A program made the translations under genes and the position numbers. DNA of 63,949 nucleotides, the filler included, from Klebsormidium nitens (Eukaryota > Plantae > Klebsormidiophyceae), in the NCBI GenBank assembly GCA_000708835.1. It is 6 parts of 6 records of this genome, joined end to end, with 100 filler letters (N's around TTAATTAATTAA, not from the genome) between each part and the next. Parts side by side here need not be neighbours in the genome. Positions count along the whole stretch, not along the records: positions 13,018 to 24,445 come from DF238181.1; positions 24,546 to 29,452 come from DF237240.1; 4 more parts are not named here. One strand, 5' to 3'. The notes beneath the pieces were generated by a model, which did not search any database, was not told the DNA's origin, and worked only from the letters and a program-made list of their open reading frames with translations. Shown piece after piece: positions 11,359 to 63,188 of this stretch (the first letter of the stretch is position 1; each line of letters starts with the position of its first letter).

Positions 11359-13235
11359 GGCGGTTAATTGGGTTCACCATCTGATGAACAGCATAAATTT
11401 TACGGCCCAGATTCCTCGCGCGTGCCAAGCGGCGTATCGACCGGCCTCGATAGCGGCCGGCACGTCTATCCGGAGGAAAGAACCGTCAATGTGCCGGTAA
11501 GTTGGACCATGTACCGTAGAGGAATCTCGGGCCGGGACCCCCTGCTGGATGTGGACCGCGGAAGTGGATCGGTTGGGTGCCGAGAGGTGTCGACTTAGGG
11601 CCCGGGGCGATCGACGAGGTTAACCATCCGCGACAAAACCCGTCGGACCGGCCCGTGCATCTGTGTCCGGAAACGAGTAGACTGGAAAAGGGCTCGGAAT
11701 GATCGAAGCGTTTATTTAAGGAGAAGTCGCCCTGCCGCTGTGATATAACCTCCACTAACCAGCAAGTAGCCCGGCCACCATCTAGAATCTTGAGGAGCTC
11801 GGAAAAGATGCAACAAACTCCAGGATCTAGTGTGGCCCGGGTGAACGATCCTAGCACCCCGACCTACGACTTGCACCCATCGAGTCAGAGTCAAGTCACA
11901 CGCGGCAACTTTATCGTAGATCTGCAAGCAATTCAGACCATTCCCGCCGACTCACTAGCCACAAAATGCCAGGCTCTGCAGTCAGACACTCCTGAAAAAG
12001 CATCAAGAGAGTTACCAGCTTGCATGTCGTAAAAACCACCCACTGAGGGGTTTCGCAATCAGCGCACCCGGTTCGTTAGCCAAAGGTCAGAGAAAGCGCA
12101 AGCCTATCTGCCCGGAGTGCGTGAAGCGATACTACGGGCCCGTTACCCAGTGTGCTAACAAACTCACAATCACCGTAGCAAGGAGAAGCCGGGAATCCGT
12201 GGGTGTAGCTGAGATCTGGTTCCAGCGCCAGACGCAAGAAGAAGCATGGAGCCAACTGAAGGAGCTTTCGGGGGAAGAGGTTGGCAATCTGGAAGAGAAG
12301 GCAGAAGAGGATCGACTTGCCTTCAGTGGGCACCGCAAGAGTACTGCGGCACAGGAAGCACTGAACAAGGGGCGGAAAGCGGGGGAAATACCAAGATCCA
12401 GTGCACAAGCGGTGGTAAGCCCCAACTATGAATCGTCAAACCCTAGAAATGCCTCTGCTCGTGCATCTGTGTGCTATCGAGTGCTTCTTTGCAAGCCTAC
12501 ATACGGTCCATACTACAGCAGTGAGGCATTCAGCAATCTGTCCAAGTGTCCAAGGATATCACCGGCTTCTTATCATCGGCCGCCGCTGGACGTCATCAAG
12601 AGTCTGAATGTCAACAGGATGTGAGTATGTGAACGTCCACCAGGTGTGAACAATATGGACCCAGTTTTCCATGCGGCTGACTGAATTGTTAGATAATGGG
12701 CTGATGAATCTAACTTGATTTTGGAGCATTTGGAGCATTTGGACAGGTGTTCATCTACCACACACCGAGCCAATAGTTGGTGTAGTATGTCTGACTGCAA
12801 TCCTAAAACATATGCAGGGGCAAACCGACACAGAGGCTGCAGAAATGTTCGGCGCCGGGAGTCAGCGGACCATCGTCGACCAAGCTATAATGTATCTCGA
12901 TGGCGTTCGGTTGGGCGNNNNNNNNNNNNNNNNNNNNNNNNNNNNNNNNNNNNNNNNNNNNTTAATTAATTAANNNNNNNNNNNNNNNNNNNNNNNNNNN
13001 NNNNNNNNNNNNNNNNNTTTTCACCCGCAGTGACCACTTTGAGTCATCAAAAAGGACATCAAATATTTGAACGGCGAACCATGCTTTTGTACCACAATTT
13101 GTATGCAACTTATGAACATTATACTTGAAATTCGGCATTTAGATTGCAGGTTTGAAGCCAACACATATGTATCACATGAATGCAGTGCTGCGCGCTGTTT
13201 TCTCAATTCAATACTGTACAAGACTGAATGTTATC

Positions 13236-16151
13236 TTACACTCCTAATTTCGCTCGTTTCACAGCAAACTCGTCCGAATTGTGCCAGTCGGAGTCACATC
13301 TACCCGGACACAACCACACGTTGCACTGCTCGCATTTCATGTTGACCTTTGTGCCACTCTTACCGCTGTTTGCGTAGCACACCCTACACCTATTCGACTT
13401 TCCCTTCATCTTTGTCAAGAAGTGGACTCGACTCGACCCCTCCGTTCCCGAACCCGATCGTGCCCCCCGTTTTGCCCTTGCCAAAGGGTTATTATCAAGG
13501 GTGTTTTCGACCAACTGCTGTTGCAACGCCACGTAGAAATCGTACCTCGAAACCTCTGGCTTCGTGGTACAGCACGTATGCGTTGTGCATGGCTCCGTCT
13601 AGCAGCCCGAGGATGACCCGGACCCACCACTTCCTAGACACGATCTCCATCTCAATACTGTAACCCAACCCTAGACACGACTTATCGAACTGATCTACTG
13701 CATCCTTATACTTGTTGTACTCAAAAGCAATCTCTGGGCACACAATCGGCTCACTCACTGAGCCCGCTCGCCGCGTCGTCTCTCCCATGCTCAGCCCGTG
13801 GCACGTCGACAGAAAGTGCACCGGCTGCCGATCCTGCCAAACGGCAGCCAACATCCCGTCCTCCCAGCAATAGGCAGCCTTCACTGCCCCCCGTTCAGCA
13901 TTCTTCTCTAAAGACAACACCTCTTTCTTAGGATACATCTTCCTACTCGGCTGACACGTACCAGTGGCCAAAAGTCCTACGGATTTCAACGACCTAAGAG
14001 GCAACGGACCTGTGAAACCTCTATCCAAAATGACCACGTGTCCTTTATCCTTGGGCACGTGCTGCCCTAACAACTTCACTACGTAATCATGCAGACCCTC
14101 TCCAGCAACCTTTAGCTTATCGTACACCCACTGAAAATAACAATAGAATGTTTCTGCATCTACGACTGTGAACACTTCTGCTCCAAACTTGTGGGGCTTC
14201 TTTGGATTATATATCCTGATTGCACAGGCCCTGTTTCTCAATGGAATCATTCTCTCGTCAAAAGTAACGTATTGTCCTGGGTTATAATAAGCTTTGAATG
14301 TTTCCTCTAAGGTTTTTAGCAACGGCAATAGATGAAACAGCCTGTGCGCCCTACTCTTCTTATCGGGAGGCCTCTGTGCATTATCATTAGTATGAAAGTA
14401 TCTCTTTATCTGCTCGAATCTATACAGTGGCATAAACCTCCCAAAATCTGGATACTTTATTGCCCCGTACACCCCAGTCTCCCAATACCTCGCAAGACTT
14501 GGCAAGGGATGCAGAGCCATAGCGAACGCAAGACCAAACCAGCGCAGGATCTCCTGGACAATCACCGGAGTCCACGGCCGACCCTGACCTTCAGGCAGCG
14601 CCGCCGCCGCCCTGCTGTCGGCGGCATACTTGTTGGTTTGGATCACCACGTCCTCCCACCAGTGCATGGGCACGAGCAGGAAGAAGACTTGCAGGGGTGT
14701 GAACCCGGGCTCACCCCCTTCACCCTGCGCTGGGGCCCTGCAAATGCACAGATCAAAGCTCAGCGTTCTGTGTGTATGTCGAAAGGTATGTCTTGTGTAT
14801 GATAACATGGCAGGGCTGCCATGTTGTCGAACCTAATATGCGCTGCAGAATACATCAGCTTTGATAGCATGGCAGCTCAAAAAGATATCTCGGATCTGTT
14901 GAAAAGACATCCTCGCTGAACCGCACATCAACCTCAGAAGCATGATATCATACTGAAGCCTATCTCCCGATCAGTTTGAAGCGTACAATCCTTGCAGCAA
15001 CCTAAAGCTTTCTGTGCATGCCAGCTTGAAAGAAACCTTTTGGTTTACTCAAATCAAAGTAAGACATTCTTGCAGCGCCCAACAACTTTGCCGCGCACGC
15101 AGCTTGAAGGGAACGAGCTGATTGACAGACTGTAACAGTGTCGCTGCAGCGCCCAACAAGTTGCCACGCATGGCAACTTCAAAGAAACCCTCTTGTTCAG
15201 TGAATGCTTTTCGTCGCTGTCGCACCCAAAGGGTTTGCCATCCATGGCCTGTTGCAAGAGAAACCCTTTGATCAATCAGGGTTACATTTAGGCAACATGC
15301 AAACAAGAGGATGCGAAAACATTGGTGAGCGCACCTGTGAACTCTGGGGGCTGCAGATCCTCAACATTGTCACCCTCGCGGACGGGTTCCCATTGCATCT
15401 CCCCGCTCGGCCCCGCCTCGCTCTCCTCTTGCTCCAAAGGGCCAACCCCCTCCTCTTCAAGCTCCGCATCACTGAAAACGTCCTCTTCCGACCCGCTTGA
15501 TTCACCCGCCATGAGCTCCTTAGAAACCTTCTTCCGGCCCTTCTTCTTCTCCTTCCGCTTGGCAAAGGTGACATTACGTGGCTGGCGGGGGCGCTGCCTT
15601 GCCTGGTCGTCAGCACCCTCCGCTTCCCCCCCTCCCTCCTCCTCCTCCTCCTCCGAACCCACACCCCCGTCCACCTCCTCAGAGTTTGGCTCAGGCTCTG
15701 AGTCAGTCTCCGAGCTAGACTTGTCGAAGTCCAGCTTGCTTGCGGGCCTTACCCGCAGCTGCCTGACTGGCCTTCCGCTTGCAGCTGCAGCAGGGGCCTT
15801 TCCAGCTGCCCTTGCGTTGCTGCCCCCTGCCTGGTCAGCAACTGGGCTCCTCAGATCTATAGATCCTGCGGGGCCTTCGCTGCCAGATGCACCCCCCCCT
15901 TCAAGCAGCCGAGGGGGTGCCCCAAACTGGAGCATTGTCTCCTTCGGAAACATGTAGATCTTGGGGTCTCCCTCAAAGCGGAGACCCCACTTCTCCGGAT
16001 TCTTGCCCCTGGCAGGCTTGTACTCCACCACAGTTCCTGGCAACTTCTTTGTGTCCCACTCGTCTCCATAGGTGGACTTTGCCCAGTCAGTGCCAAACTG
16101 TGTGGCACTGACTGACACCACCAAACCCATGCAAGCTTGTTGCGAGGCCAT
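13236..16151 (-). mobile_element. piggyBac-family DDD transposase gene, intron-containing and frameshifted
   Basis: Core 13495-14737 has VTFDERMI, VILDRGFT and YNKYKDAVDQFD (DDD triad). A C-terminal Cys-rich domain (CRVC...CEQC...LCPGRC...WH, 13236-13532) follows a frameshift near 13550. The acidic N-terminal exon 16151-15335 ends EFTG|GTGCGC. Termini are lost in gaps. Confidence 0.9.
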
Positions 16152-18150
16152 CAGGGACTGTTGGCAGTAGTTGGATATGAGCAGGGAGATGGGCTGCAAG
16201 CGTTTTGAGCAAGATAAAGACGAAAGATGTGAAGCGCTGTGAGCAAATGTCCTGTCAAACTTGGGTCAAACTGGTGTCTCAAGTTTGCTAGCAACTAGAG
16301 CGCGTTTTTTTCCGGTTTTGGGTCGGACTTGGACCTGTCGCACTACCTTCGGACATGTCCAGCCTGGCAACACTGGATAGGCATGCGCGAACGCATGACA
16401 CGTGGCAGAATACACGCCAGGCATTTGCTGTCAAGATTGTGTCCTCAATCGAGGACAAGGTCCTTAATCGAGGACAAATTACGGTGCTAGTNNNNNNNNN
16501 NNNNNNNNNNNNNNNNNNNNNNNNNNNNNNNNNNNNNNNNNNNNNNNNNNNNNNNNNNNNNNNNNNNNNNNNNNNNNNNNNNNNNNNNNNNNNNNNNNNN
16601 NNNNNNNNNNNNNNNNNNNNNNNNNNNNNNNNNNNNNNNNNNNNNNNNNNNNNNNNNNNNNNNNNNNNNNNNNNNNNNNNNNNNNNNNNNNNNNNNNNNN
16701 NNNNNNNNNNNNNNNNNNNNNNNNNNNNNNNNNNNNNNNNNNNNNNNNNNNNNNNNNNNNNNNNNNNNNNNNNNNNNNNNNNNNNNNNNNNNNNNNNNNN
16801 NNNNNNNNNNNNNNNNNNNNNNNNNNNNNNNNNNNNNNNNNNNNNNNNNNNNNNNNNNNNNNNNNNNNNNNNNNNNNNNNNNNNNNNNNNNNNNNNNNNN
16901 NNNNNNNNNNNNNNNNNNNNNNNNNNNNNNNNNNNNNNNNNNNNNNNNNNNNNNNNNNNNNNNNNNNNNNNNNNNNNNNNNNNNNNNNNNNNNNNNNNNN
17001 NNNNNNNNNNNNNNNNNNNNNNNNNNNNNNNNNNNNNNNNNNNNNNNNNNNNNNNNNNNNNNNNNNNNNNNNNNNNNNNNNNNNNNNNNNNNCCGGATCC
17101 GGCCATCCGACGGCGGATCTGGCTCGGGGTTTAATTCGCGGCCGCACTGCGCGTTAATGACATTAGTCCGCGCGACCCGCGCGCGTATAGCTACCGGGGG
17201 ATCCCCGCGAGGGCTCGGAAAGCTAGCGCCGTTACATCGTCCACCTGAGAGCAACTCGTCTTATTGAGTACTGAGTGTATCATATCCTGCGGCCACAGGG
17301 CCTCTCACCAGTGGAATGGGGGAGAGGTTGATTTTCCAAGCGTGGGTGTCGGTTGTGAAGCAAGAGAAATCTGCACGAGCTTTGAAGCGACGCACCGAAG
17401 AGGACGGAAGCTAAGGACAGCTGAAATGCAGTTGAAGGACATCGACAGTTCCGTGCGTGGTGAAGTATCACGGATTCCTCCGATTATCACGTCCGTCTCT
17501 TCTGAGCAATCTTGACGCTTTGCGTCTGATAAGACCATGAGCACAAAGTTTGACCGCATTTTCAATACTCGAGAGTCAAGGCAGTGCGCAACCAGATACT
17601 TTTGTTTCTCAACAATTGGCGTTAAGAAGTGCACTCACTTTTTCCGAATCTTTTAGCGCCCTCTCCAGCGCACAGCATATGTCCTTCACTAGCGCAGGGA
17701 CCGCCTCATGAGCAGAAGCGAACGGATCTTGGACATACCAGCACGTCAGATAAGGAACGGGACGAAAATAGCACGTCTTGCAAGGCACCAATGATCGACC
17801 GATCAGTCGCGGGGCCAGTGCATTAACGACAAAGCAACGAATCTGTCGACAGGAGGATCAATTGATCGAAGTACTTCTGCAAAAGAAGCACATGCGGCCT
17901 GGGCCAACCCGCGAAAGCAAGAAAACAGTCCCGAACATTTGAAGCGCCGCGCAGCGCAGACAGAAAACAAACGAGTCAATCATTTGAAAAGAACCCTGGT
18001 GCACAATCTGTCCCTTGAATGATCTGCACGACTCTCAAAGGTGCAGCAAAGAGCGCAATCCTCCCATCTTTTCGCCCTAGCGAAACAACGCCTTTAGTCG
18101 AATTCAAGCCGACCCACACATCTCACCATCGACGTTGAATCTTTCGCCTC

Positions 18151-22059: not shown

Positions 22060-24256
22060 TCATGTGACTTGTTCCACCGGGCTGCTGTTCTTGTGGATGC
22101 CCGTGTCCGTTTCTTCCGTGTCCGTTTCTCCTTCCCCGTCAGATTGTCCCCCGCCCTGTGCCCCGTTTTCTTCCCTTCCGTATTGTTCTGCTCTCGCTTC
22201 CTCCTCGCCCCGCTCCATCCCCTCGCTCTCTTGTGCCTCTTCGCTCTCGTTCTCCTCTTCACTCTCTTCTTCTCCCTCGCTCTCTTCTTCCTCATCGCCC
22301 TCTTCTTCGCTCTCGCTCTCGTCGTCGCTTTCGAGCAGCTTCCAATGCTCCTTCGCAAGGGTGAGGAATTCTCTCGCGCCATCGTCGTACAGGACCTGTG
22401 AGCAATGGTCAAAACGGGCTGATCTTGCGGTGCATTTGTCGGCGGGAACTTAAATGACGGCTATGTTTCGCAAGATAAGGTTGGCAAGAAGCGGGCCAAT
22501 GGGTTGTTGACAATGAGTCTATTCAATAAAAAAGGGCATGGTGCCCTGTGATGACAGTGCATGTGCTGAAGAGAGACCTCGCTTGGCGTAAAAGTTCGCA
22601 TGATGAGGCTACAAACAAAGGGATCGCATACAGAAAGCCGACGGAGGACTGGGAAAAGGCGGAAAAACGGGTGGGTCTAGCACGCGTTGCCCAGGCCAGA
22701 CAAAGCCCCACAAATTTCTGTATGATTTCTGTGGGAACTGAAACTAAGGACCGAGACACGTGGGTCAGACTTAGATGATGGCAGCCAACGAAGCGCAGGC
22801 TAGCTCAAGCGAATTAACTTCGTAAAAACGAAGCTTAGGAAAACGAAGCTCAGTAAGGATAAAGCTTAGCAAAACCTAGACTGAAACTCTGATGTCTACT
22901 TTCATAATGGGTCATCCGTCAAGCCCCTGACCCAAATACCCCCTCATACCTCGTGGCTCGAATTCCATTTCGTGTAGCGAATGACCCGCCCCTTGTTGTA
23001 CCTGCAAGCGTGCAGAACCTTCGGTCAGGTGCATGGTCAAGATGAAGATCAACCCATCGGGCGAGGAAGAGCGGATTGACCAGTCAAATGAAGATGCAGC
23101 ACAGGGTCAAGAAGGACAGAACTTCGTGAAGGTCAAGAAGAGATGCCGGAAGACTGCAAAGCGATCCAATGTCTATTGCCACCTCAAGAAAGGTACATCG
23201 CCGTTCTGAGTTTCGGAAATCATCCTCCTGCCCACTTCATAATCCATCGACCTTGAAGAGAAAGAAGACTTGCAAACCTCAACCCAATCCAGAATCTGAT
23301 GATGGAGACAGGCCGAACGCACAGAAGCTTGCCTTTCGTCAGACTGCCCACCAAGCCTCAGCATTTCAAGAGCACCTCTGATTTCAGAATACAGCGGATT
23401 GAACAAAGCTTCGTAGAGAATTTTCATACTGGGCAGAGAGAATGGGAGAGGAAACAATGGCTCACACTCCGTCAATCGGCCACCAGATGCCCACCCGCCG
23501 GCTGACCAGCTCGCTGTCCAGCGAAACACCCCCAACAGCAGCCATATCCATGTTCACTGTCTTCTGTGGCGATGGGACAGCCCTTTTGCTCCCCTTGGTC
23601 GCTGGCCTGGCGTGGGCAAGAGCCCCGTCCTTCTTCCCCTTGAGATACTTGCGGTAGCACGTGCTGCATGTGGTCTTTGGTCCTTTCGGCCCGCCATACC
23701 ACATGCACGTATCCCGCGTACCGCACACGTGGCAAGGGCCCCCTCCCTGCAGATCGTGGCACTTGCGGCACTGCGTCTTGGGCCCCCCAGGGCCCCGGTG
23801 CCAGCTGCTCGACTCTGTTGCTCCACAGTCAATGCACAGCCCGGGCTCTCGTGTAGCCAAGCTGTGCCCCGCGCCCTTCTTTTTTGGGGAGGTCTCCAAG
23901 GAATTTGGAGAAGCCCCCTTCTGTTTCTGCTTCTCACCCCTGGAGTCCATGGCGGTTTTTGCCAAGTCTGCGACCTTCTTTCCATCATTCTCCGGTGCTG
24001 AGTCACCCTCCTTCTCGTTCCCCTTCGCTGTGTGCGTCTTCCCGGTGAGCACATGCCCTTGTCTCCTCCTGATATTGTACTCCCGAGCGTAACAGGGATC
24101 GCACTTGCGCACCTCCGCCGACACTCCGTACCACCTCCCGGAGCCCGTCGCCCCACACAGGTGACACCGCTTTCCATTTTTGCCAGTGGCCCCCTCCGCG
24201 GCCTTCCCTCCATCCTTATCCTTCTGACGCGCCGCTGCTGCGGGACTACAAAGCAC
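22060..24256 (-). CDS. Protein with three GATA-type Zn fingers, a Tudor domain and an acidic tail (exons ~24246-23466, 23001-22950, 22395-22060)
   Basis: Fingers are CX2CX17CX2C and two CX2CX18CX2C with GPxGPKT (plant GATA-like). The spliced Tudor domain reads LVSRRVGIWWPIDGV-YNKGRVIRYTKWNSSHE-VLYDDGAREFLTLAKEHW, with canonical in-phase GT-AG junctions. The start exon is unresolved. Confidence 0.8.
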
Positions 24257-24699
24257 AGCCGTTGATTGTGCACGTAGAGTTCGATTCCGTGACGTTCCGT
24301 TACTGAAGGAACTAATAGCGGAAGGTAGAACGGAAACTCACCTTAGTTGGTGCGAGCACGTTTCGTGCGGTCACGCATTTCTTTTCGCCGTGCTAACCCT
24401 GCCACGGTTCGCTCATGAAGAGATTGCCAGTACTCGTCTAAGAGANNNNNNNNNNNNNNNNNNNNNNNNNNNNNNNNNNNNNNNNNNNNTTAATTAATTA
24501 ANNNNNNNNNNNNNNNNNNNNNNNNNNNNNNNNNNNNNNNNNNNNACCTGATGGATCAAAGATACGATTCTGACGAATTTGCAACCCACTCAACGTGCTC
24601 CTCAATCTGGCAGACGTTTTAAGATACTTCAATGCTCGTGAACGCATTCAAGAGCTCTGCGCTCGTGCTCATTAAGACACCTCAATACTTGTGAAGGCA

Positions 24700-25230
24700 A
24701 CCAAAGGAAGGCTTGGTGCTTTGGGATCATCCAAAGTGTCCAAAGAGGACAGCTGAGGCATATCGAATCCAGCATCCATCATCGTTGAGCTGTGGTTTTA
24801 TGAAGCTTCTTTGTTCGACCGGTAACTACTAACTACCCGCAACTACCTTCTTGAGTTTGCAAAGGGCAGCTATAGACTTCATCTCAACTCGTACAAGACC
24901 GATAAAACACACGGGCCTCAAAAGCTCGACATACCAGTCCGACTTGGCAACGTAATTGCAAAAAAGTCTCTCCGTCTTTCCAAGAAAATACCTTCTAAGC
25001 CGAATGAGAACACCAGATGCCCCAATGGGGTCGGGATACTTGACCAAGTTTTTGGCGGCCATTTATCCTGATTCAAACATGGGATCGTGCCTCCTTCGGA
25101 AGATCACCGTTAGCAATGCAATGCGAGATGCTCCGAGCCTTTCTGAAAGAGACCAGCTCGCAAAATCCATGTTACACAAGCATCGATAGCGATGCGTTAC
25201 TATGAGGCAAGTACAGACCTGATGGAAGTC
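24700..25230 (+). pseudogene. Tyrosine recombinase of the Polinton-like-virus/large-DNA-virus type, multiply frameshifted
   Basis: Fragments across frames: NYLLEFAKGSYRLHLNSYKTDKTHGPQKLDIPVRLGNVI (24841-), SLSVFPRKYLL...MGSCLLRKITVS...ERDQLAKSMLH (24956-25189), and ASIAMRYYE. They supply the K (YKT), R (LLRK), H (MLH) and catalytic Y positions. Confidence 0.7.
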
Positions 25231-25281
25231 GCATCCAATTCTGAACGGTTGAAAACGTCCACTTGCCATTTGAAAGCTCGT

Positions 25282-25620
25282 TCAGGACACTTCGATACCT
25301 GCTGTGAACGAGCTCAACGGAACGGTTGGTGCTCTGAGATCCTCCAGCGTGTATATCGATGCTATTTGAGAAACGTCAAAGCCTGCGTCTGCTAAACGGA
25401 TTAGCGTCTGTTTGTGCAATCGTTTGGTGGTGCCGGAAAGGAGACGTTTGTAAGCTTTTTGCATGAGGATGCTCTCTTTGTTGCGATTGTAGTACCTTTT
25501 AACAATCTGTGCGTGCTGTTCGTGGTGCTCCTTCCGGTATGCACGGCTTGTTTCACACACTCGGCAACGGCATGGATGGGTGTTGGTGTCGGTCAAAGAC
25601 TCTGTATTGCATTGGACCAT
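25282..25620 (-). CDS. Small basic hypothetical protein (112 aa) with a CxCx2C motif
   Basis: ATG start, intact, divergent from the primase. Contains HPCRCRVC and KRYYNRNKESILMQKAY, a basic helix of a kind common in small viral proteins. Confidence 0.65.
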   Translation of the reverse strand: MVQCNTESLTDTNTHPCRCRVCETSRAYRKEHHEQHAQIVKRYYNRNKESILMQKAYKRLLSGTTKRLHKQTLIRLADAGFDVSQIASIYTLEDLRAPTVPLSSFTAGIEVS

Positions 25621-25727
25621 GATGATGCCCTACAACTAAGCTTCGAAAATAAGCAGTCGGAGAACGCGGTTGCCGATGATGCGCGTTCAAAAGGGTCCCA
25701 AAATTTCCTCACACGAGTGTAGACATC

Positions 25728-28586
25728 ATGGCCACAATCGGTGCTGTCCAAGCCAACGCCTCAGGACCTGGGGCATCCAAGTTGTCTAAGGGCCCAGGGG
25801 CCCAGGGCATTCGAGACGAGATCTTACGGCTCCGCGAAGCTGGGCTCCTCTCCATCCCAGTGCATCTTTTCTGGAACGGGGACGAAGGTAAAAAGGACGC
25901 AGATTTCCCTCACAAGTGGTGTCACATTACGGATTCCAAGTCGTGGGAAAACTCGATCGAAGCTGCTCTAGAGCAGAGGGCTCACGATGCCAACGGCGTA
26001 GCCATTCTGACGGGTCCGAGCCATATCTATGTGATTGACGTTGATGTTGTCAAAAAGAAGAACGGAACGCTTCCTGGAATGGACCTTTGGAGCCAACTCA
26101 TTGCTCGGCATGGAGAACCGCAGACCCTCAAAGCCCAATCAGGCTCAGGCGGTCAGCATTTTTTCTTTAAGGCTTCTACGCCGGGGCTAAAGTGCACCCG
26201 TAACTTTCAAACGGTCAAGGTGGATGGCAAAGTGTACGGTTTGGATGGACGCGGAATTGGTGGCCTGGTGTACGTCCAACCGGCAAGTTACATAAATGGT
26301 GAGGGCAAACTCGCAAGGTATCAATGGCTGAACGGCCCCCCGAGTTTTGATGCATGCAAGGAGATGGACCCTTGGATTGTCGAGCTCGTAAACAACCGCA
26401 ATAGCCAGCGCACAATGATGAGCGAAGACGAATGTGTGCCACGCAATGCACCGTTGGCGGCGTCAGAATCGGAGTGTGTTGAAGTCGAGCGCAATCAGCG
26501 GCCGACTACGAGCTCCGGGTCGCCACACATCAAAGACCTCTTGCTGGCACAATTTGCACAGATGCTAAAAGAGGCCGGCGATTCGACGAGCACATACGCC
26601 GGGTCGTTGTCGCGCGGCCTCTATGGGAGATACTATTGCTACCGGACGCATGGGCCTCGAAGGTGCTACTTTGGCCATATGCATTCGGGAAGCAACAACT
26701 TTAACTTGCTCAAAAGGGGTCGGAATGTCTACTATCGCTGTCATGGTGCTGAATGCAGCCACAAACCGGCCAAAAAGCTAGGGGTCTTGAGCGACCTCAA
26801 GGCCGCCTTGCAAGACGCAACCAGTGCGGCCGTGGACCCCCATGACGACATGCAGGTGGTCACTCAATACACCAGAGGGACTCGAGAGGTCCAGGACTTG
26901 CTGCTTAAGATCGTTGTGGAGCATGCTGCTCCTAAGGCGTATGTCAACTTGGGACGCCTCTTTGCCTATATGTACATGATCGAGGGCCGCATTCTGGCGA
27001 CCACCAATGATGCGGAGAAAAGTCGAGATTCGCACTTCTTTGTCTGGAACGGATCCTCGTGGGTGGAAGACAACTCAAATCTGGTTGCCAGCGTGTTCAC
27101 GTCTCAGATGGGTTGTTTGCTGGCATGGTATGAGAGAGAGCGAGAGAGGGTTTTGAGTACCTTGTACTCCAAGCACCCAGATTTGGAGGTCTTCCTGGTG
27201 GACGGCATCCTCTGAAAGCCTCTCAACATTGAAGAGGTCAATCCAAAGGTTCTAAAGAAGATCAAGATGGCCACAGAGGCGTGCATGAAGGAACGAGACG
27301 AGAGCATGCCTAGCTTTGGCAAAATCAACGTGCAGGACATTGTTGACGTTCGAAAGTGCATGCACTCTGTGGTCAACGAGCTGCACGTACCAAAATTGCT
27401 CGACATGTTTGATCAGGATCGTGCGGTTGCAAACGCGCCCAACGGATTGATCGATCTTCGAGCGGGGGTGCTCTTGCCCCATCATCCTCAAGACCTCTGC
27501 TACAATCAGACGAGCGAGTACATACCCGGCGCTTCATTGCGGCCCACCTCCAAATTCCGGACGTTTCTGATGGAAGTTCTCCCACCGGATGCAATTGATT
27601 GGCTCCAGATGTTTCTGGGATATTGCCTCACCGGCGAGACGTCGGAAGAGCTTTTTGTCATTGCAAACGGGTTGTCTGGAAGCAATGGAAAGGGAGTGTT
27701 GAAGCAAGCACTCCGGAAGGCATTCGGAAGCTACAATTGCGCCGGGAACAAGGCCATATTCATCAAGCCAACGTTCAAGGCAAACGCTTCCGCAGCATCA
27801 ACCCATCTCATGCAGATTCGGACCAAGAGGCTTGTGACAAACGATGAATCCGAAGGGGTTGAAGAGCTCCATGCATCGTTTGTGAAGGAGGCAAGCGGCG
27901 GCGGCGAGCTCGATGCGCGCGAACTCTTTTGCAAGCCACAAAACTACGTTCCCCAATTCAAGCTGTGTCTCTTCACCAACTTCAGGCCCCACTTTCCAAG
28001 CGACGATACCGCCTTGATCCGACGGATTGTGCTCATCATGTTCAACTATACATTCAAAAGTCCTGACGAGCTCGATGCTTCCAATAGGTGGCACAAGCCC
28101 ATCGATCTGAGTCTTAAACCCTACTTTGAGTCGGACGAGGGGGCCGCAGACACTCTGGACTTTTGCGTTCGAGGGGCGATCATGTACTATGCCAAGAAGG
28201 CGCTTGCACCCACTGCAAGGGTCCTGTCTCCAATCCCCGTGGCATTCAAAGCGGCAGCAGACGAATACGCCGGAGAGAATGACAAGCTTCAAGCGTTCAT
28301 AGACGAGGTTTGTACAAAATCTCCTTTTAAAGAAGGCCCCACTGCGAAGATTGCCAAATCTGATTTTGTCGAGGCCTTTAAGAACTTTTTGTATGCTGGT
28401 GGGCACGACGTGGGCCTGGCGGGTGATGGGTTGTCGAGGGCAATGCGCTTAAAGGGGTACTTGCAACAACCGCCCGATGGTGGAAAAGCCTTCATGGTCA
28501 GAACGATTGATGGTAGATCCCGAGGCAGAGGCTTTTTTGGTATCCGTCTGAAGACAGAGGAGGAACTTAGGGCCGAAGAGAATTGA
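25728..28586 (+). pseudogene. Bifunctional Prim-Pol primase / Zn-binding / D5-like SF3 helicase (952 codons, single in-frame TGA at 27213-27215)
   Basis: Prim-Pol motifs NGVAILTG, YVIDVD, SGSGGQHFFF and DGRGIGGLVYVQPAS. Zn-like RRCYFGHMH...YYRCHGAEC. D5_N-like NAPNGLIDLRAG. Walker A GLSGSNGKG, Walker B LVTNDES, KEASGGGELDARELF and LFTNFRP. ORFs 25728-27215 and 27267-28586 share one frame. Confidence 0.93.
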
Positions 28587-28600
28587 AGGCGGGCAATTGA

Positions 28601-29081
28601 GTGCTGATACAACATGATACACGAATGTGGTCATTTTAAATGGATGTGTATCAGCACCAAATATTCGGGCTTTCCTTCCGTGCCGTGCCTTTTTTACGGC
28701 AATTTGGCTTCTTGATGCGTCAAGAAGTATTGATGAGGTTGCGGCAAATTGCACTTGTGGTGCCTACCGCGGAAAAGGTGCACTTTTTGAGCTGATACAG
28801 GTGATACAAGATACACTATCAAAGTGTATAGAGATTTTTTCCATTTTTTTTTAATTGCTTTATATAGAGACGCTCGCCGTGAAAACGTGTATCAACTGTC
28901 TCATTTGTATTAGACCACAACCCACCCCATTGCAACATGATTTGCACGGGAAAGTCCGAAACCACGGCCTTTGGCGGTGCGGAAAGGCCATTGCAGTTGT
29001 TTTTATCGTCGATCAAAGACACGCCTTGTATCCTTCTGGGACATGATACAGAACGGAAATTGTGTATCAATGTTTGTATCA
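28601..29081. repeat. Heptamer iteron-like array (TGATACA/TGTATCA x9), candidate replication origin
   Basis: Forward copies at 28605, 28615, 28793, 28802 and 29044; reverse copies at 28647, 28888, 29063 and 29075; one-mismatch copies at 28809 and 29027. T-rich tract at ~28835-28866. 11-bp inverted repeat 28601-28611/28647-28657; hairpin 28708-28727. The repeat is certain; its function is inferred. Confidence 0.85.
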
Positions 29082-29119
29082 TAGTTGAGACGGTCCAGAA
29101 GTGCAACGAATTGCCGTCT

Positions 29120-29452
29120 CTACCCTAGCAAGAGCCTCCGGGAGATGGCCGCCGTCCAAGCAGCCGCCGCAATTGCAATGCTAAACTTGGCGTCATCGAC
29201 CCGCCGCAAAGAGCTGTTGTAACCGCCAAGGAGCAGAGGCAGGATCACCATAAAGCTCTCAAGCCCGGAGTACCACCCCAGACTCCTGAACCCCTTGAGA
29301 AAGGAGTTGACGGACTCCACGGCCGATGATGTGTTCACCCAGTGCAGGGCGTTGTAGTTGTCGGGGCAATTCGAGGGGCCACACTTATGGACTTCGGCTC
29401 TAGCCTTTGCGTAGTGGAACCTGCGCATAAAAAGGTGTACATTATGAAGCGG
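29120..29452 (-). pseudogene. 3' end of a probable KDZ (Kyakuja-Dileera-Zisupton/HMGXB3-like) transposase, cut by a gap
   Basis: RFH...VHKC...Y...VNTSSAVESVNSFL...RS...Y...FM matches the FH..H..C...N(S/T)..(A)E..NS.L C-terminal pattern of this group. Confidence 0.55.
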
Positions 29453-29799
29453 NNNNNNNNNNNNNNNNNNNNNNNNNNNNNNNNNNNNNNNNNNNNTTAA
29501 TTAATTAANNNNNNNNNNNNNNNNNNNNNNNNNNNNNNNNNNNNNNNNNNNNATGGATAGGGACATGGACGTAAAATCCGCCGTTTTGATTGGGCTGCGT
29601 GTCAAAAGTACCACGTGTCGAACCTAGACCGGGGTCCGAGTCGCCGAAAATAATGATGATGCAACGTCATTTGGTCGTCTTTGAATGACTTTCTAGAGAT
29701 CGGACGGTCATAGTCAATCAATTTCTGTATCCAACGGTCGCCGGGGCGCCGTTTGATATTGTCGATTTTGTCTTATAAAAGCGGTCAGACCAAGGGGTA

Positions 29800-30246
29800 C
29801 GTCGCATGCGACCGCTACATTTCTGGTTCCGCGACAATGTGGCGGTCCCGAGACCAAACCCTCGTCGGATGCCACCGCCACTCGGTCAAAATTTTGGAAA
29901 GTACAATTCGATCGCGCGATCGGACCATCAAAACCGCCAGAATGTGGCTGGCGGTTTGGGGGTCCTCCTAGAATCTGGCGGTTCCGACATTCTCAACCGA
30001 GGACTCCTAATGACTGAAATTGCAGACTGGAAGTACCCGGTACCATATCGGTAATTATCAATATTTTTCTTCGCGATTAAAATCTTTAATTTGGAATTAA
30101 ATCTGACGACTCACCGCCAGCTATCGAACGCACCGTCGAAAGTTGTACCTTCTCAACGATCCGTCCGTACCGTATTCGTAAAGCCTGACCCGAAGTCAAC
30201 CCACCACAATCTGGCGGAAATGTAATTGTAGCGGTCGCATGCGACG
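29800..30246. mobile_element. MITE-like element
   Basis: Perfect 20-bp inverted repeats at 29800-29819 and 30227-30246 (CGTCGCATGCGACCGCTACA). Flanks are TA on the left and CA on the right. Confidence 0.55.
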
Positions 30247-33200
30247 CAGCCCCAAGACACCCGTTCCACTAGCGGCCGGCAGAACATTTTAAATTCTGTG
30301 ATTGGCTGAATATTGCTCTAGGTCAACTACCGGACTTCCGGGCAAATAAATTCATTCTCGCAGTCGACCCCAATAAGTTCGGACGATCAGGATTGCAAGT
30401 TGTTGATTTTTACGATTCAGAGCCGTCGAGCGTCGATATCGACTGCCGTAAAGTTACGTCAGCGCCCAGCACTTTGCGCGCTAGCACTGCAAATGACTGG
30501 GGCACTCCTTGAAATCGAGGGTGCGCCGCATCATCTGGCGCTGCGCGCGACGATATATCATGGGTTTCAAGCGGTCAGATAACATTTTACGAATCCAACG
30601 GTGCCAAACTTTCGAGTGTTTTTCAGCAACCGCCGTGCCGACAACTAACCAACTGATCGTTGGCCAAAAACCGGCCAACCGCAGCGCGCCACGTGTCCCC
30701 CCTCTCGCGCGGCTCGCGATCGGGCCGGAATGACCAGCGGGTGGCAGAAAACGCCTGCCCGGTAAACCGTTTTTCCGGTGCATTGGGTTTGTGGGAAAAT
30801 CCTGGGGTTTTTGTGACGCGGTTTGACCACGATCTGCAACTGACCAACTGATGCGGCATTCTGATAACGTATACCGTACCGTACGGTACAAAGTTCCAAC
30901 TTGGTTGAACCGTTCGGGGCCCGGGCCTGGCGCCCCCAACAGACTCATAGGTTATTCGCACCTGGATTTATTTTTGACGCCGCCGACGTACCACTATCCT
31001 GTCCCGGCTCTTCACGGGAAAATAAAAACCACCAAGAGGGTTCCTTGACACCAAGACGGACCAAGTCGGAACAGGGATTGTATAAGAGGTCTCTGACGTC
31101 ACTAACCATAGGGTCCGGAAAATAATAAAAGACGTCACTTTAGAATTGACTAGAATACTCGATACTTTTCCCGCTTATACCTTAGAACTTTCCTGATTTA
31201 ACCAGAAGGCTAAGGACGGTTGTAGAGTNNNNNNNNNNNNNNNNNNNNNNNNNNNNNNNNNNNNNNNNNNNNNNNNNNNNNNNNNNNNNNNNNNNNNNNN
31301 NNNNNNNNNNNNNNNNNNNNNNNNNNNNNNNNNNNNNNNNNNNNNNNNNNNNNNNNNNNNNNNNNNNNNNNNNNNNNNNNNNNNNNNNNNNNNNNNNNNN
31401 NNNNNNNNNNNNNNNNNNNNNNNNNNNNNNNNNNNNNNNNNNNNNNNNNNNNNNNNNNNNNNNNNNNNNNNNNNNNNNNNNNNNNNNNNNNNNNNNNNNN
31501 NNNNNNNNNNNNNNNNNNNNNNNNNNNNNNNNNNNNNNNNNNNNNNNNNNNNNNNNNNNNNNNNNNNNNNNNNNNNNNNNNNNNNNNNNNNNNNNNNNNN
31601 NNNNNNNNNNNNNNNNNNNNNNNNNNNNNNNNNNNNNNNNNNNNNNNNNNNNNNNNNNNNNNNNNNNNNNNNNNNNNNNNNNNNNNNNNNNNNNNNNNNN
31701 NNNNNNNNNNNNNNNNNNNNNNNNNNNNNNNNNNNNNNNNNNNNNNNNNNNNNNNNNNNNNNNNNNNNNNNNNNNNNNNNNNNNNNNNNNNNNNNNNNNN
31801 NNNNNNNNNNNNNNNNNNNNNNNNNNNNNNNNNNNNNNNNNNNNNNNNNNNNNNNNNNNNNNNNNNNNNNNNNNNNNNNNNNNNNNNNNNNNNNNNNNNN
31901 NNNNNNNNNNNNNNNNNNNNNNNNNNNNNNNNNNNNNNNNNNNNNNNNNNNNNNNNATCAGGCTGGAACCCTACCCCTAAGTTGCCAGGGCCAACTTCTG
32001 TTCAAGTCATAGTCCGAGTCGGGGCAGGCTCGGAGAGTCGGAACTACCTTTCAGCGATGTGTGTAGGCTGTAGCTCCCTAAACGTCTGATTCAGGCTTTG
32101 GAAGTACTTTCTCGGCCACGTGGATCTTTCCTAATTGTTTGAGTCAGGCTCGGAGTCGGAATGTCGGAAACACTTTACGATATCTGCCACGTGGAGCTTC
32201 CCTAGTTGTCTGAGTCAGGCCTTTCCGGATTTGTAGCTCGCTGGGACATCTGAGTCAGGCCTCTCTCTAAAGTCTAAAGAGCAGCTACAGCAGTGTTCGG
32301 AACCGCTCAACCGTCTAATGGAGCTTGCTCAGAGCCTCAGACGTCTGACTGAGGCTTTTCATTGGAGACTTTTCCTTGGTGTCCAGCTTGTCCGCCTTCT
32401 CTGCCAGGCTGTTGGACGGTTGAAAAACTGCACCTACAAAAAGAGGTCCTGCCATTTCATTCACCCAGCACGATTTTCTCAGCTCATTCCTCAGCACGAG
32501 CTTCTTAGCTTTTGACTCAAGCTTCCAACTCAGGATGCACAATCAGACAGCTGCTAAAGAGCGCCAGCGAGGCGCTAGCGGGATCAACGCACATTTTTAG
32601 AGCTGCGCACCAGCAGATGCTTGAGCCATTTTTTTGGCTCCCTGTCAAGGATTTCTTGGAAACGTCCTGCTCAAGAGCGCTGGAGAAGCTCATACAAGGT
32701 GAGGGGCGCTTGTTGGAGCGTGCAGATCCAGACCGCTTGTCGTGGGAGCGTGCAAGCTGCAGTCTCAATCATCTTTGCCAAAAAAGCAAAAGAAACTCTT
32801 GACTGGTGGTGGTGTATGTATGCTGGGGATGCCCCGGGCTGAAGCATCCCTGCATACACTATCAGCTCCAAACAGACAGAACAGTGGACATGCATCTATC
32901 TCCAGCAGCAGATGCGCAGCAGTCCTTGAGCCGATTGGCTCGCTGTCAAGGGTTTCTTGTCAAGGACAGCTAGAAAGGCTGTGAGTGCGCCGCTCGGTGG
33001 AGGGTGCAGACTTAGAACTCTCGTATGAGTGGAAACCTCCAAGCTGCTTGTTGTCAAACACGTTTGCAACTTATGCGATGTTGCTCGACTGTGTTGTGTT
33101 ACTTTGCAGGAAACTAGATCAAAGAGCTAAGAATCTGCATTGGTTCTTAAGCCTGGGCATCAGATTGTGGAGTGCCAGCTTTTTTAGCTCGTGGCCTCTG

Positions 33201-34390: not shown

Positions 34391-35535
34391 TGGCTTTAAA
34401 GTTTTTGGCCAATTGCAAAGCACAAGAAGCCTTTCTGCGCCTGCAGCTTGGGTGGAGATGTGGCGCATAAAGGCGGAGCTTGCCAGACTCAAAGCCGAGC
34501 TGCGGGAATTTGGGGGCGCACCATCGAGCGCAGAGAAGGAGCGATCCCGAACAAGTGAGCGTCGCGTGCAGTTTGCGGGGGCAGTTTCGAGGGGCGATGC
34601 TTTCGGGGCACTTTTCGGGGGCAGTTTTTTGGAAGGGGGGGGACAGTTTTGAGCCTTTCTCGAGATGCACCGCAGGGCCGACGCTTACTTGTGGTTAATA
34701 CTGAGCGCATATCATGATCTTTTATCAAGTGCTGCAGAGAGAAATGGGAGTTTTGGTACCCCGCCCCAAACAAGATGTCTGCACGAGCATGCGGCAAGCT
34801 TGCTGTCAACCATTCTGAACATTCGTTTTGCCGTTTGCAGCTCGCAACGCGCCTGGGCAAAACGCGATGTTCTATGATTTGACGCCCAAAAGCATCGCTC
34901 TCATAGGTGAGAAACAAGCCGGCTGCGCTATCTTTGGGAGCATGCAATTGGTGCATACGGGTCTTGATGGTTGTCTACTGTTCCTAAGTTGCCTGAGTTG
35001 TTTGGTCAAGAATCGTACGCCCAGAAAAACGACTCGCCGTTGTATTGTCCTCTGCGCAGGGACCCTTTTGGCAACCGGCTGCGTGGAGTTGAATCCCGGG
35101 CCTGTGGAGGACGAGGTGTCCGCAACCCCGGGGACCCGCAATGGCGCGCCGCTCGTTCATTTGTCCTCTCATGAGGTTAGCCCCTTGCCTTTAGTCCTTT
35201 AAGTGTGTCTCGTGCCATATCCCTTACAAGCGTCCGTCTTTTTTGAGTAGCTCGTCGAAAGAAGTTCTTTTGCTGGCTACTGGATGCGGATTCTTATGCA
35301 CTTTGCAAGGTGATGAGTGTGATGTTTGATAAGCCTTCTATTTGAGCTATCCATGAGCTAAACATTTCGGCTTGCATCAAGTGCACCTTCCAAAAGCAAC
35401 TATCCTTCACGTTGTGCACAGATGTTGTCTGGACCGGAACCCAGTTCCAGTGAAGGAGAGGGCGACGAAAGATCCTCAGACGGCAGCGACCAGTAAGAGT
35501 CGCCGCATCACTTCCCTCAAGACGAGGATGACAGT

Positions 35536-37537
35536 ATGATGCATCTGAGCCAGGAGGTCGGCGAATTGTCGCTATCACCCGGCCCCCAAGACGAAGTGCG
35601 CGCGTTCGGCGAGGTTTCGAGGTTTGTCGCGGACGGGAAGGCGCGCGCCGCGGGGTTCCTGGCGGCGATGTTCAGCGCGTGGGCGGCAAACCAGTTCGTG
35701 ACCTTTTGGATGGACGCCATGGGCGCGGCGATGATGTTGGGGGCCAGGTTCCTCGCGATCGTCGAGACGGAGCGCGGGAACCTGCGGCCCGAGGTGGGGC
35801 GCCCTTTTCAGCAGCACTTAGCTTTTATTTTTTGCTGAATCACTGCTGCGATGTGTCAGGCGTACCACCCCCGTGGTACGTCTCTTAGTATTGGTCCTCG
35901 ACCATGAGCCGTTTGATGGCTTTTCAATCCGAATGGATTCTTAAAGGTGAGGAACCAGTCGTAAAGTATAACAGCTTTGACGGGATTCGCCGCTTATTCG
36001 TCTTGTGTCTTTCGATTCGGCATGTCCAGTCTCTCGTTTTGTTTTCTGGCATGCGCGTCATTTGCGTCTGGTCGTGTTGTCTGTCCTGGCATCGGGTACT
36101 TCTATTTCCCCGTAGCCAGAGTCTTGTACTTCGCTCAATGAGAGACGCCCGTAACTTAGCATTGAACGGCGATCAAATGCTATCATCTTGGTGTGTCCTT
36201 CGGGCTTCAAAACTTTCCTTTCACCCTCTTTCCGTTCACACAACTTTGCTTTTAATAAGCGCTTAACTAACTCCGTTACTCCTTGCTTCTCGAAAGCGTC
36301 TGCCTAGCTTGACTCCCTCGATGATCTCGCATGGTAACCATGTTCTTCGCGCCTCCCCAGATGGCTGCCCTCAGCATTACGTACGCCGCCGAGTTCGCTG
36401 AGCTGCTCATGTGGAGCGTGCGCCAGTGGACCGAGCTCGAAGTCGCCATGGTCGCCGTGGAACGCGTTCTCGACTACACCGCTCTCCCCTCAGAAACCTG
36501 GGACGGCCGCCCGAGAATCCCTCTTCCGGCCACAGTACAGTCTTTGGAAACTGGCGTACCGGGCGCGCGGTTTGTACCGGGCGCTCAGCCGCCCGCCACG
36601 TGGCCCGAGCACGGCCGGTTGGAGTTCCAGGACGTGTGGCTGGTGTACGAGGTGCGCGCCAAGGGAGCGGTGAAAGCAACCGGGGGGCAGAAAGTGCCCG
36701 GCAGAACGAGAGACGGGGACGGAGAGAAGCCCGGGAAGGCGGCGCTGCGGGGAGTGACATTTGCGGCGTCGCCCGGGGAACGGATCGCGGTGGTCGGGAT
36801 AATGGGCGCCGGGAAGAGTAGCTTGGCTGGTAGAACTAGATCGGGGGAGAATCTTGATCGACGGAGTCGACGTGGCGGGCGTGCCGCTCGCCCAACTGCG
36901 GTGCAGGCTCGCGGTGGTGCCTCAGGAGCCGGTGCTCTTCTCCGGGAGCCTGCGCAGCAATCTGGACCCCCGGGGGGTGCGCCTCGACCGCGAAACCTGG
37001 GCGGCGCTCGAGGCCCTTGCGCTGAGGAAGACGGTCGCCGCGAAAGAGAAGAAGCTGGAGGAGGAGGCGGGCGGGGCGCTGTCGCTCGGGGAGCGGCAGC
37101 TGCTGTGCGTGGCGTGTGCCCTGCTCCAGTCAGCGACGGTCACGACCGTGCTCGACGAGGCGAGCAGCGCGGTCGATGCGGACTCGGAGCGCGCCATCTA
37201 CCGGGCGCTCCTGTGGCGCCCGGGGATGCCCCGGTCGCTCGGCCGCGGCGGCTTCGGAAGCTCGGGGTAGCTCTCCCGGGCGCCGAGTGGGCAGGCGCTG
37301 GCGAACCTGGAGGGAGAGGAGAGTGGCGGGGGGACCCCCCGGGCGTTTGAGGGCGCCCCGGGCGGTGGGTTCTACCTCGGGACGGTGTTGTACATTGCGC
37401 ATAAGCTGAGCACGGTGTTGCAGTGTGACCGGGTGATTGTGTTGGACCAGGGGCGGATTGTGGAGATGGACAGTCCGGCGGTGTTGATGGCCAGAGAGGG
37501 GAGCCGGTTTGCGGCGATGGTAGAGACGGTGGGTTAA
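35536..37537 (+). pseudogene. ABCC/MRP-type ABC transporter, C-terminal half (TMD2 end + NBD2), disrupted
   Basis: EVRAFG...WAANQF; ELEVAMVAVERVLDY; WPEHGRLEF; Walker A VVGIMGAGKSSL; VPQEPVLFSGSLRSNLDP; signature LSLGERQLLC; Walker B VLDEASSAVD; H-loop IAHKLSTV to TAA at 37537. There is a frameshift/deletion near 36840 and a TAG at 37268. Confidence 0.88.
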
Positions 37538-62379: not shown

Positions 62380-63188
62380 AGAACAAGGAGAGTGGTCCTG
62401 ACATTCGTCAGTGGTTGCCTATGATTGAGGAGTATCTCGTTGCTACTTCCAATGCAGAGTATCTGCGTATTGCATCTTCCTATCTGAATGGTAAGCCGAG
62501 GTCCTTCTGGATGTCGACGTGGGAGGCATGGCAGGCAGCCAACCCTGGAGCGTATCCTGGAAGTGCTAACCCTGGCCCGTTTGTTGGAGCTGCTCGGGAT
62601 TTCTTCCGTGAGACTATGATTAGGGGCTATGGTCTTCGTACCCCCATTCAGTCCTATTGGGATACCTGGAACAAGTTGTCCAAGGGGTCCAAGAGCGTGG
62701 ATGATTATAACATCGATTTCAACCAGGCCATGGTTAATCTCCGTGAGGAGATTACTGATGAGGCTGTCAAGATCGAAAGGTATCGGTCGGGACTTCAGCC
62801 TGACCTGAGGGAGATGTGTCGCACTAATACTCCTGGTCAGCGTTGGGCAACGCTCAATGCCATCGGAGAGTATGCGACTCTACAGTGGCCTACTATTGAG
62901 GCACGTCTGGCCAAGCGCATGTCTTCCCAGCCTGCCAAATCGGTGGGTGGAAAGCGCAAGGCATCTGGTGGAGGTGGTTCTGGACGTTCGTCCAAGGCCA
63001 AGTTGTCGGCAGCTCTTACCGATGAGCAGTAGGCCAACGATATGGAGAACCGCCTGTGCCATATCTGTCAAAAGCCAGGCCATATTGCACGTGACTGCGA
63101 GGAGGGTCCTCCCAAGGCGGCCGCGGGCAAGGGCAAAGGCCAGAAGAAGGGCAACAAGAAGTATGAGCAAGGTTTTCAGAAAAACTAG
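62380..63188 (+). pseudogene. gag: Ty3/gypsy Gag (retrotransposon-gag domain + Zn knuckle), premature TAG at 63030
   Basis: PDIRQWLPMIEEYL...YLNGKPRSFW...SVDDYNIDF...KIERYRSGLQPDLR. Past the TAG the same frame gives CHICQKPGHIARDC and ends GFQKN-TAG at 63188. Confidence 0.88.

Follow-up and report, generated by a model that had tools for sequence, protein, structure and literature searches.

We analysed a stretch of 63,949 nucleotides from the genome of the streptophyte alga Klebsormidium nitens (assembly GCA_000708835.1; hereafter the window), in which parts of six records are joined by 100-letter fillers. Its main subject is a 4907-bp contig (DF237240.1; positions 24546–29452 of the window) that is bounded by gaps on both sides and carries a tyrosine recombinase (YR) relic, a small cysteine-motif open reading frame (ORF), a fused primase-helicase, a dense heptamer array and the last exon of a transposase resembling those of Kyakuja-Dileera-Zisupton (KDZ) elements. 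The interpretation that we favour, with slightly better than even confidence, is that these belong to one composite, capsid-less, self-replicating KDZ transposon carrying a replication module of the type found in giant viruses or Polinton-like viruses (PLVs). This interpretation rests on the gene set, the linkage of the genes in other copies, their co-divergence, the conserved catalytic residues and a conserved heptamer core. A Polinton-like or giant virus is the most likely source of the module, and capsid genes are likely absent from the element.

The replication module

The gene at 25728–28586 (plus strand) encodes an archaeo-eukaryotic primase (AEP)-type PrimPol domain fused to a zinc-binding segment, a D5_N domain, a superfamily 3 (SF3) helicase and a C-terminal domain, as judged from Pfam, motifs, profile and fold. 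It runs for 952 codons from the ATG at 25728 to the stop at 28586, with a single in-frame TGA at 27213–27215. Pfam detected Prim-Pol (E 1.3e-15) and D5_N (E 2.2e-7), the zinc ligands are C313, H319, C338 and C343, and the AEP DxD/H/D residues, Walker A and B motifs, sensor Asn and Arg finger are all kept and are conserved across the family alignment (A1). These features bear out the fused replicase proposed in a preliminary description of this DNA. Profile search identified C962R of African swine fever virus (ASFV) as the closest solved relative (E 2e-16). The predicted model of the helicase half (predicted local distance difference test score, pLDDT, 92) likewise had ASFV PrimPol C962R as its top fold match (E 1.3e-21, TMq 0.70), followed by poxvirus E5/D5. 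Homologue search returned 20 matches at 35–83% identity (11 K. nitens gene models, six sequences from JGI, two from Logan and one from ENA), and uninterrupted primase-helicases of 985–990 aa are present in JGI data (P0002, P0012 and P0223). In a tree of 132 helicase sequences the family formed one clade with a support of 0.997, separate from relatives of ~800 aa at about 30% identity. Deeper-branching primase-helicases within this clade, at 33–38% identity, are P0072 from K. nitens, P0059 and P0021/P0025. Elsewhere in the window, 35464–35586 (+) matches at 80% the N-terminus of P0166, a second, distant PrimPol-D5 protein of K. nitens; this is probably a shared repeat.

Upstream of the primase-helicase lies the YR relic (24835–25244, +), which is 83–89% identical to P0042, P0044 and P0054. 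It comprises residues ~215–350 of a 350-aa protein (about 135 residues), scattered over several frames with about three frameshifts, and the N-terminal part bearing Arg-I is missing. The preliminary description had correctly recognised a virus-type YR here. The segment 24546–24834 is not the YR N-terminus and contains the tails of two further genes. Positions 24546–24573 (+) hold the final codons (PDGSKIRF*) of a second, diverged YR copy, the remainder of which falls in the gap; they match the C-terminal motif of the YR alignment (A2) and form a repeat (D19) with 25217–25244. The small ORF, too, has a diverged second copy, whose 3′ tail lies at 24672–24785 (−; ends approximate; 50% identity to the ORF at 25282–25620 by tblastx, E 1e-9). 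Because a Logan contig covering 24547–24908 crosses the junction with five differences, this local partial tandem duplication of YR and small ORF is real. The small Cys-motif ORF of the preliminary description (25282–25620, −) is real and intact and encodes 112 aa with a CxCxxC motif; it is convergent with the YR and divergent from the primase. Its sole match was a weak one to phrog_36724 (E 0.015), and a candidate DNA-binding regulator is our guess.

A search with the N-terminus of gene model P0011, which matched the window, gave 32 relatives, the longest of 437 aa. Across the family, Arg, Lys, Arg, His and Tyr (R-K-R-H-Y) are kept in 16–18 of 19 alignment rows, and the usual first His of HxxR is substituted. 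The N-terminal domain of the predicted YR model aligned with Ndc10 (Z 9.4; root-mean-square deviation 3.5 over 96 residues), Brujita integrase (8.0), archaeal XerA (7.8) and lambda Int (7.5), with Z ranging from 7.4 to 9.4. A core-binding fold, in the N-domain of the model, and the YR residues, in the alignment, are thus both present. The top Foldseek matches were proteins of giant viruses, at E 7.6e-6 to 1.6e-3 and with low TM-scores; one of them, from Heterosigma akashiwo virus (E 1.6e-3), is annotated as a Tyr recombinase. Virophage proteins were matched as well. Pfam gave no notable match for the YR, and searches of NCBIfam, of PDB sequences and of phage records gave none at all. The present copy of the element is dead, being able to make neither YR nor primase-helicase.

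Downstream of the helicase, nine exact copies of TGATACA are arranged within the 477 bp of 28605–29081 in three groups, each plus then minus. The whole window has 15 exact copies. When the spacer was subjected to 1000 dinucleotide shuffles, the commonest 7-mer never exceeded seven copies. The dense array of the preliminary description is real. At its core (28784–28866) three heptamer-like copies (28784–28816) adjoin a tract of 80% A+T, and the 55 bp beside the triple are the most AT-rich 55-mer of the contig. Other copies match the spacer at ≥80% solely over this triple, where depth reached 62–86 compared with 16–19 in the surrounding bins; the loose ends at the triple run on into a similar AAAGTGTATA and A/T run. 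Origins of P4 and of Staphylococcus aureus pathogenicity islands (SaPIs) consist of iterons beside an AT-rich unwinding tract. By this analogy, the heptamers and the AT tract fit iterons plus unwinding tract, and the array is a candidate replication origin. Alternatively, the transposase or the recombinase may bind the heptamers, or these may be 3′-end signals of two convergent genes.

The transposase exon and its linkage to the module

At 29123–29420 (−) a DDE transposase gene of KDZ-like (CxC4) type is represented by its last exon, which encodes the H..H.C motif and the final catalytic Glu. This exon lies about 40 bp beyond the stretch covered by the preliminary description and stands tail-to-tail with the helicase. 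The frame 29123–29452 (−) has itself no Pfam match, and all 13 of its matches are K. nitens models (408–1331 aa, 66–80% identity). Among these 13, nine had a Pfam match to KDZ (best E 9.9e-6) and eight one to CxC4 (best E 7.1e-5), all under the curated cut-offs, and one relative, P0215, carries a precomputed PF18758 annotation. The KDZ catalytic motif is D, D, DxxH..H.C, E; in our alignment of 10 sequences (A4), D, D, DxxH, H, C and E were invariant in every covering row. Judged by homologues and motifs, the enzyme is likely a KDZ DDE transposase. Positions 29421–29452 (−) are the 3′ end of a spliceosomal intron (pyrimidine tract plus CAG), the rest of the gene lying in the gap. Transposase similarity starts directly after this tract and CAG at 29421, and four of four JGI fragments of the transposase family end at ...FVVDR, the same intron position; the intron is therefore conserved. 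Far to the left, 11959–12621 (+) weakly resembles the N-terminal extension of transposase model P0209 (26%, E 9e-7) and is possibly a relic.

Primase and transposase models bear consecutive locus tags at five loci (002280180/170, 012860020/010, 014030030/020, 001520110/120 and 003670050/040), which account for 5 of the 11 K. nitens primase models and 5 of the 13 transposase matches. A separately assembled 1722-bp contig spans helicase, array and exon (27749–29452) without a single difference. A diverged 2548-bp Logan contig keeps the order of helicase, heptamer core and transposase exon colinear with the window. Another contig links the helicase end to the heptamer core. The YR is fused upstream of the primase in two K. 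nitens gene models (P0011 and P0020). In addition, seven contig sizes were common to 37 primase and 30 YR entries from JGI, Logan and ENA (0.06 expected, no more than two in 20000 draws), equal size being an indirect sign of the same contig. YR, primase-helicase and origin-like array form a linked, multicopy module in a streptophyte alga, which supports this part of the preliminary description. In sequencing run X1, 131 contigs align to the 4907-bp contig at ≥80%, 84 of them at <90%, although such depth does not give a copy number. All primase and transposase relatives with a stated organism come from K. nitens. Contamination or a misjoin, a concern raised at the outset, is ruled out by the GC content of the contig (46–54%, comparable to the flanking parts) and by the 1722-bp contig, whose run is possibly the source of the window.

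The two genes also diverge together. Patristic distances among primases and among their neighbouring transposases correlated at r=0.95 (window copy plus five loci, n=6; 1/720 permutations) and, minus the most distant pair, at r=0.92 (n=5; 1/120 permutations), in a sample that is small, with partial gene models and with the window transposase placed from 98 residues. The identity-based correlation was 0.84 (3/720), and 0.82 when computed for the five K. nitens pairs in which more of the transposase sequence is available. Tree distances of YR and primase correlated as well (r=0.83, p=0.006, n=10). These data bear on the idea that two separate elements are nested repeatedly, a YR-primase replicon inserting by target preference beside the 3′ end of a KDZ transposon, or the reverse. 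YRs are site-specific, the heptamers could be transposase or recombinase sites marking the junction, and 8 of the 13 transposase matches lack an adjacent primase among the matches retrieved. Matching divergence, however, is not expected from independent insertions, unless targeting is subfamily-specific, and the spacer in another copy is diverged yet colinear. Repeated nesting is in our view unlikely.

Catalytic residues are kept in all three families, across copies that are 49–85% identical, and among the differences listed, third codon positions account for 15 of 22 in the helicase and 14 of 18 in the transposase. The same contigs could be read as an ordinary cut-and-paste KDZ transposon that holds captured viral DNA as passive or accessory cargo and does not replicate itself, the heptamers being 3′-end processing signals (UGUA-type) or subterminal repeats. 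Most K. nitens models of the family are broken, like the window copy, the array sits between two convergent 3′ ends, and KDZ elements carry TET/JBP genes as cargo (PMC12730594). We nevertheless hold passive cargo to be quite improbable, given the retained catalytic residues with their third-position bias, the occurrence of intact ORFs and the conservation of the heptamer core beside an AT-rich tract.

The co-divergence likewise speaks against the minimal three-gene satellite of the preliminary description, a stand-alone element resembling P4 or phage-inducible chromosomal islands (PICIs) that would depend for packaging on a giant virus or PLV as helper. The order of integrase, primase-helicase and origin is real, and inserts of giant viruses and PLVs are reported in K. 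nitens (PMC5294986, PMC10120064). But a spliced KDZ-like DDE transposase is regularly found joined to the module, and the two diverge in step, so the element is larger than such a satellite and more like a transposon-virus composite. No helper-hijacking gene was identified, and free copies were absent from IMG/VR and a metagenome collection, which also lack the JGI contigs found by protein search. A helper-packaged satellite is accordingly the least probable of the explanations considered, and very improbable.

Capsid genes, source of the module and proposed cycle

The main rival to a capsid-less transposon is a fusion of a KDZ transposase with an entire PLV, in the manner of the fish element Teratorn, with capsid and ATPase genes in the gaps beyond the YR or the transposase. 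PLVs carry genes for a major capsid protein, a minor capsid protein and a packaging ATPase, have terminal inverted repeats and measure 15–30 kb. No capsid or packaging-ATPase family was found among the Pfam-scanned ORFs of the window or in the 4.9-kb contig, a weak test for PLV capsids, which are poorly covered by Pfam, and in a contig that ends in gaps. The coding space of the contig is wholly assigned, so that a capsid gene would not fit between YR and transposase, and the primase and transposase models are consecutive at the five loci given above. PLV recombinase genes tend toward the genome extremities (PMC4642659), which would put the transposase at the position of the capsid block. On the other side, PLVs possess YRs and AEP-SF3 primase-helicases (PMC4642659), the latter being an accessory and patchy PLV feature that is present here, and the fold matches of the YR are giant-virus and virophage proteins. 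K. nitens has seven capsid genes of the PgVV group of PLVs, with a divergence similar to that of the present family (PMC10120064, Tables S1, S4 and S5), and its giant-virus inserts comprise six capsid genes with no D5 in the accessible listing (PMC5294986). Because these capsid genes may lie at the family loci, a whole-virus fusion stays the main rival; we regard it as doubtful, if less so than nesting. The main texts of PMC4642659 and PMC10120064 contain no mention of a transposase.

That no relative of the family was found in IMG/VR also counts against a whole-virus fusion. IMG/VR scans with the helicase half, with A1 and with A2 found none, nor did a scan of the metagenome collection with A1, and 32 motif matches were all chance (no tblastn match); the JGI contigs found by protein search are likewise missing from these collections. 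A scan of IMG/VR with a sister-group alignment (A3) retrieved 80 loci, the best of which is a giant-virus contig from a metagenome-assembled genome at 32%, and a YR of the family type was absent from all 80. These loci are distant and point to no donor of the module.

In the composite transposon that we favour, the primase-helicase would bind the heptamers, open the AT-rich tract and prime synthesis, by analogy with P4/SaPI and D5-type replicases. The excised form would thereby be amplified outside the chromosome. Circle formation or the resolution of multimers would fall to the YR, and the DDE transposase would integrate copies elsewhere with a target duplication of 7–8 bp; target duplications of KDZ elements are 7 bp for Kyakuja and 8 bp for Zisupton and Dileera (PMC12730594).

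Several observations weigh against this interpretation. The gap-bounded contig shows no element end, target duplication or full-length copy, and no test explains why one element should need a YR in addition to a DDE transposase. The predicted YR model is poor (pLDDT 58.7) with a weak catalytic half, and a Foldseek search of PDB gave no match with E≤0.001, Cre ranking first at E 0.13. The KDZ and CxC4 Pfam scores all fall short of the curated thresholds, the best reaching 25.8 bits against a cut-off of 26.6. In addition to the eight transposase matches mentioned above, 6 of the 11 primase models have no consecutive-tag partner among the matches retrieved, which fragmented assembly and word-limited searches may explain, and locus tags and equal-size contigs indicate that genes are neighbours but reveal neither how they are oriented nor how far apart they lie. 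The YR-primase correlation falls to r=0.45 (p=0.04, n=9) once the most distant pair is left out. In P0066 and P0069 (JGI) the PrimPol N-terminus of the family is fused to another, related helicase-like C-terminus, and because related helicases have been exchanged behind the same PrimPol, modules recombine. The Logan sequencing runs represent a single sample, possibly the window's own source. Finally, four of the seven K. nitens PLV capsid genes are 71–86% identical to the reference copy, a spread that resembles that of the present family (PMC10120064, Table S5).

Surroundings and comparison with known systems

The window is dense in transposons, with a piggyBac-type transposase and gag relics among its Pfam-scanned ORFs. 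The piggyBac-type ORF lies at 13498–14832 (−; DDE_Tnp_1_7, E 3.5e-51), with a further, unassigned ORF upstream at 15291–16265 (−), and the retrotransposon gag relics lie at 508–1272 (−) and 62382–63029 (+) (zf-CCHC, Retrotrans_gag). Immediately left of the gap that precedes the contig, an ORF at 23462–24337 (−) encodes several GATA-like zinc fingers (E 8e-7) and a tail that we take to be Tudor-like; it may be a host gene or element cargo. A proposed Crypton-like relic at 22800–23500 received no support from Pfam. To the right, 29794–29845 and 30201–30252 are a pair of inverted repeats of 52 nt each, 79% complementary and separated by 355 nt, that resembles a miniature inverted-repeat transposable element, and 36325–37347 (+) holds ABC transporter fragments that are either frameshifted or split by introns.

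In P4 satellites and SaPI/PICI elements, as in the module described here, an integrase and a primase-helicase are followed by iterons beside an AT-rich tract, and the sequence suggests the same layout with an adjacent candidate iteron origin. Those elements, however, are bacterial, packaged by a bacteriophage helper and without a DDE transposase, whereas the best solved matches of the present helicase are ASFV C962R and poxvirus D5, its organism-named relatives are all from K. nitens and the module is joined to a spliced eukaryotic gene. The element resembles a DDE transposon onto which an integrative replicon has been grafted, and it is not a member of the P4/PICI group. Casposons and pipolins are likewise mobile, with an integrase and a DNA-synthesis gene of their own, and use family B polymerases, as Polintons do, whereas the window element has a PrimPol-SF3 helicase and two unrelated recombinases; the self-synthesising Polintons combine the same traits (PMC10175614). 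PLVs share with the module a YR (an accessory gene in PLVs, where it is OLV11-like), a fused AEP-SF3 primase-helicase, the lack of introns and integration into algal genomes (as described in PMC4642659 and PMC10120064).

On the transposon side, KDZ elements resemble the present one in the D-D-DxxH-E residues, introns and cargo genes and in its putative CxC4 and KDZ-like domains, the cargo described being TET/JBP and similar, and PMC12730594 contains no mention of "primase". Giant repeats of Amoebidium also combine a flanking DDE transposase with intron-poor genes that include tyrosine recombinases (PMC11244446). They differ in having a Plavaka transposase and up to 50 kb of tandem genes, with no primase-helicase or origin reported in the accessible part of that source. 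Teratorn, the piggyBac-alloherpesvirus fusion of teleost fish, is similar in that a DDE transposase is joined to viral replication genes and matching trees are the evidence of fusion (PMC10175614). Co-divergence of transposase and viral genes is found here as well (n=6), but in place of piggyBac and a whole herpesvirus there are a KDZ-like transposase and a D5/C962R-type helicase. Teratorn spans ~180 kb and includes capsid genes (PMC10175614), compared with the ~4-kb YR/primase-helicase module of the present element, in which no capsid gene was seen.

In the literature covered, with Repbase and most subscription papers outside its scope, we came across neither this Klebsormidium family nor a KDZ transposase combined with a primase-helicase and a YR. 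It is conceivable, and we advance it tentatively, that the element represents an undescribed class of self-synthesising transposon in eukaryotes, in which a KDZ transposase was fused long ago to a capsid-less virus replicon and which combines episomal amplification from an iteron origin, a PrimPol-SF3 replicase, resolution by a YR and re-insertion by a DDE transposase. Such a class would parallel Polintons and casposons, but free of polymerase B, in the algal relatives of land plants. Its 7-bp iteron and AT tract would provide a compact eukaryotic candidate origin that, together with the primase-helicase, is open to assay. It is rare for a cut-and-paste transposon to be stably fused with the replication genes of a DNA virus, and the generality of transposon-virus fusions is described as unclear in the review of Teratorn (PMC10175614). 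A capsid-bearing fusion, if that is what the gaps conceal, would likewise be a new one. If the composite interpretation is true, the KDZ-PrimPol/D5-YR element would be a second case, unrelated to Teratorn and in a culturable streptophyte alga. It would then show one way in which self-copying transposons that lack polymerase B can arise from Polinton-like or giant viruses.

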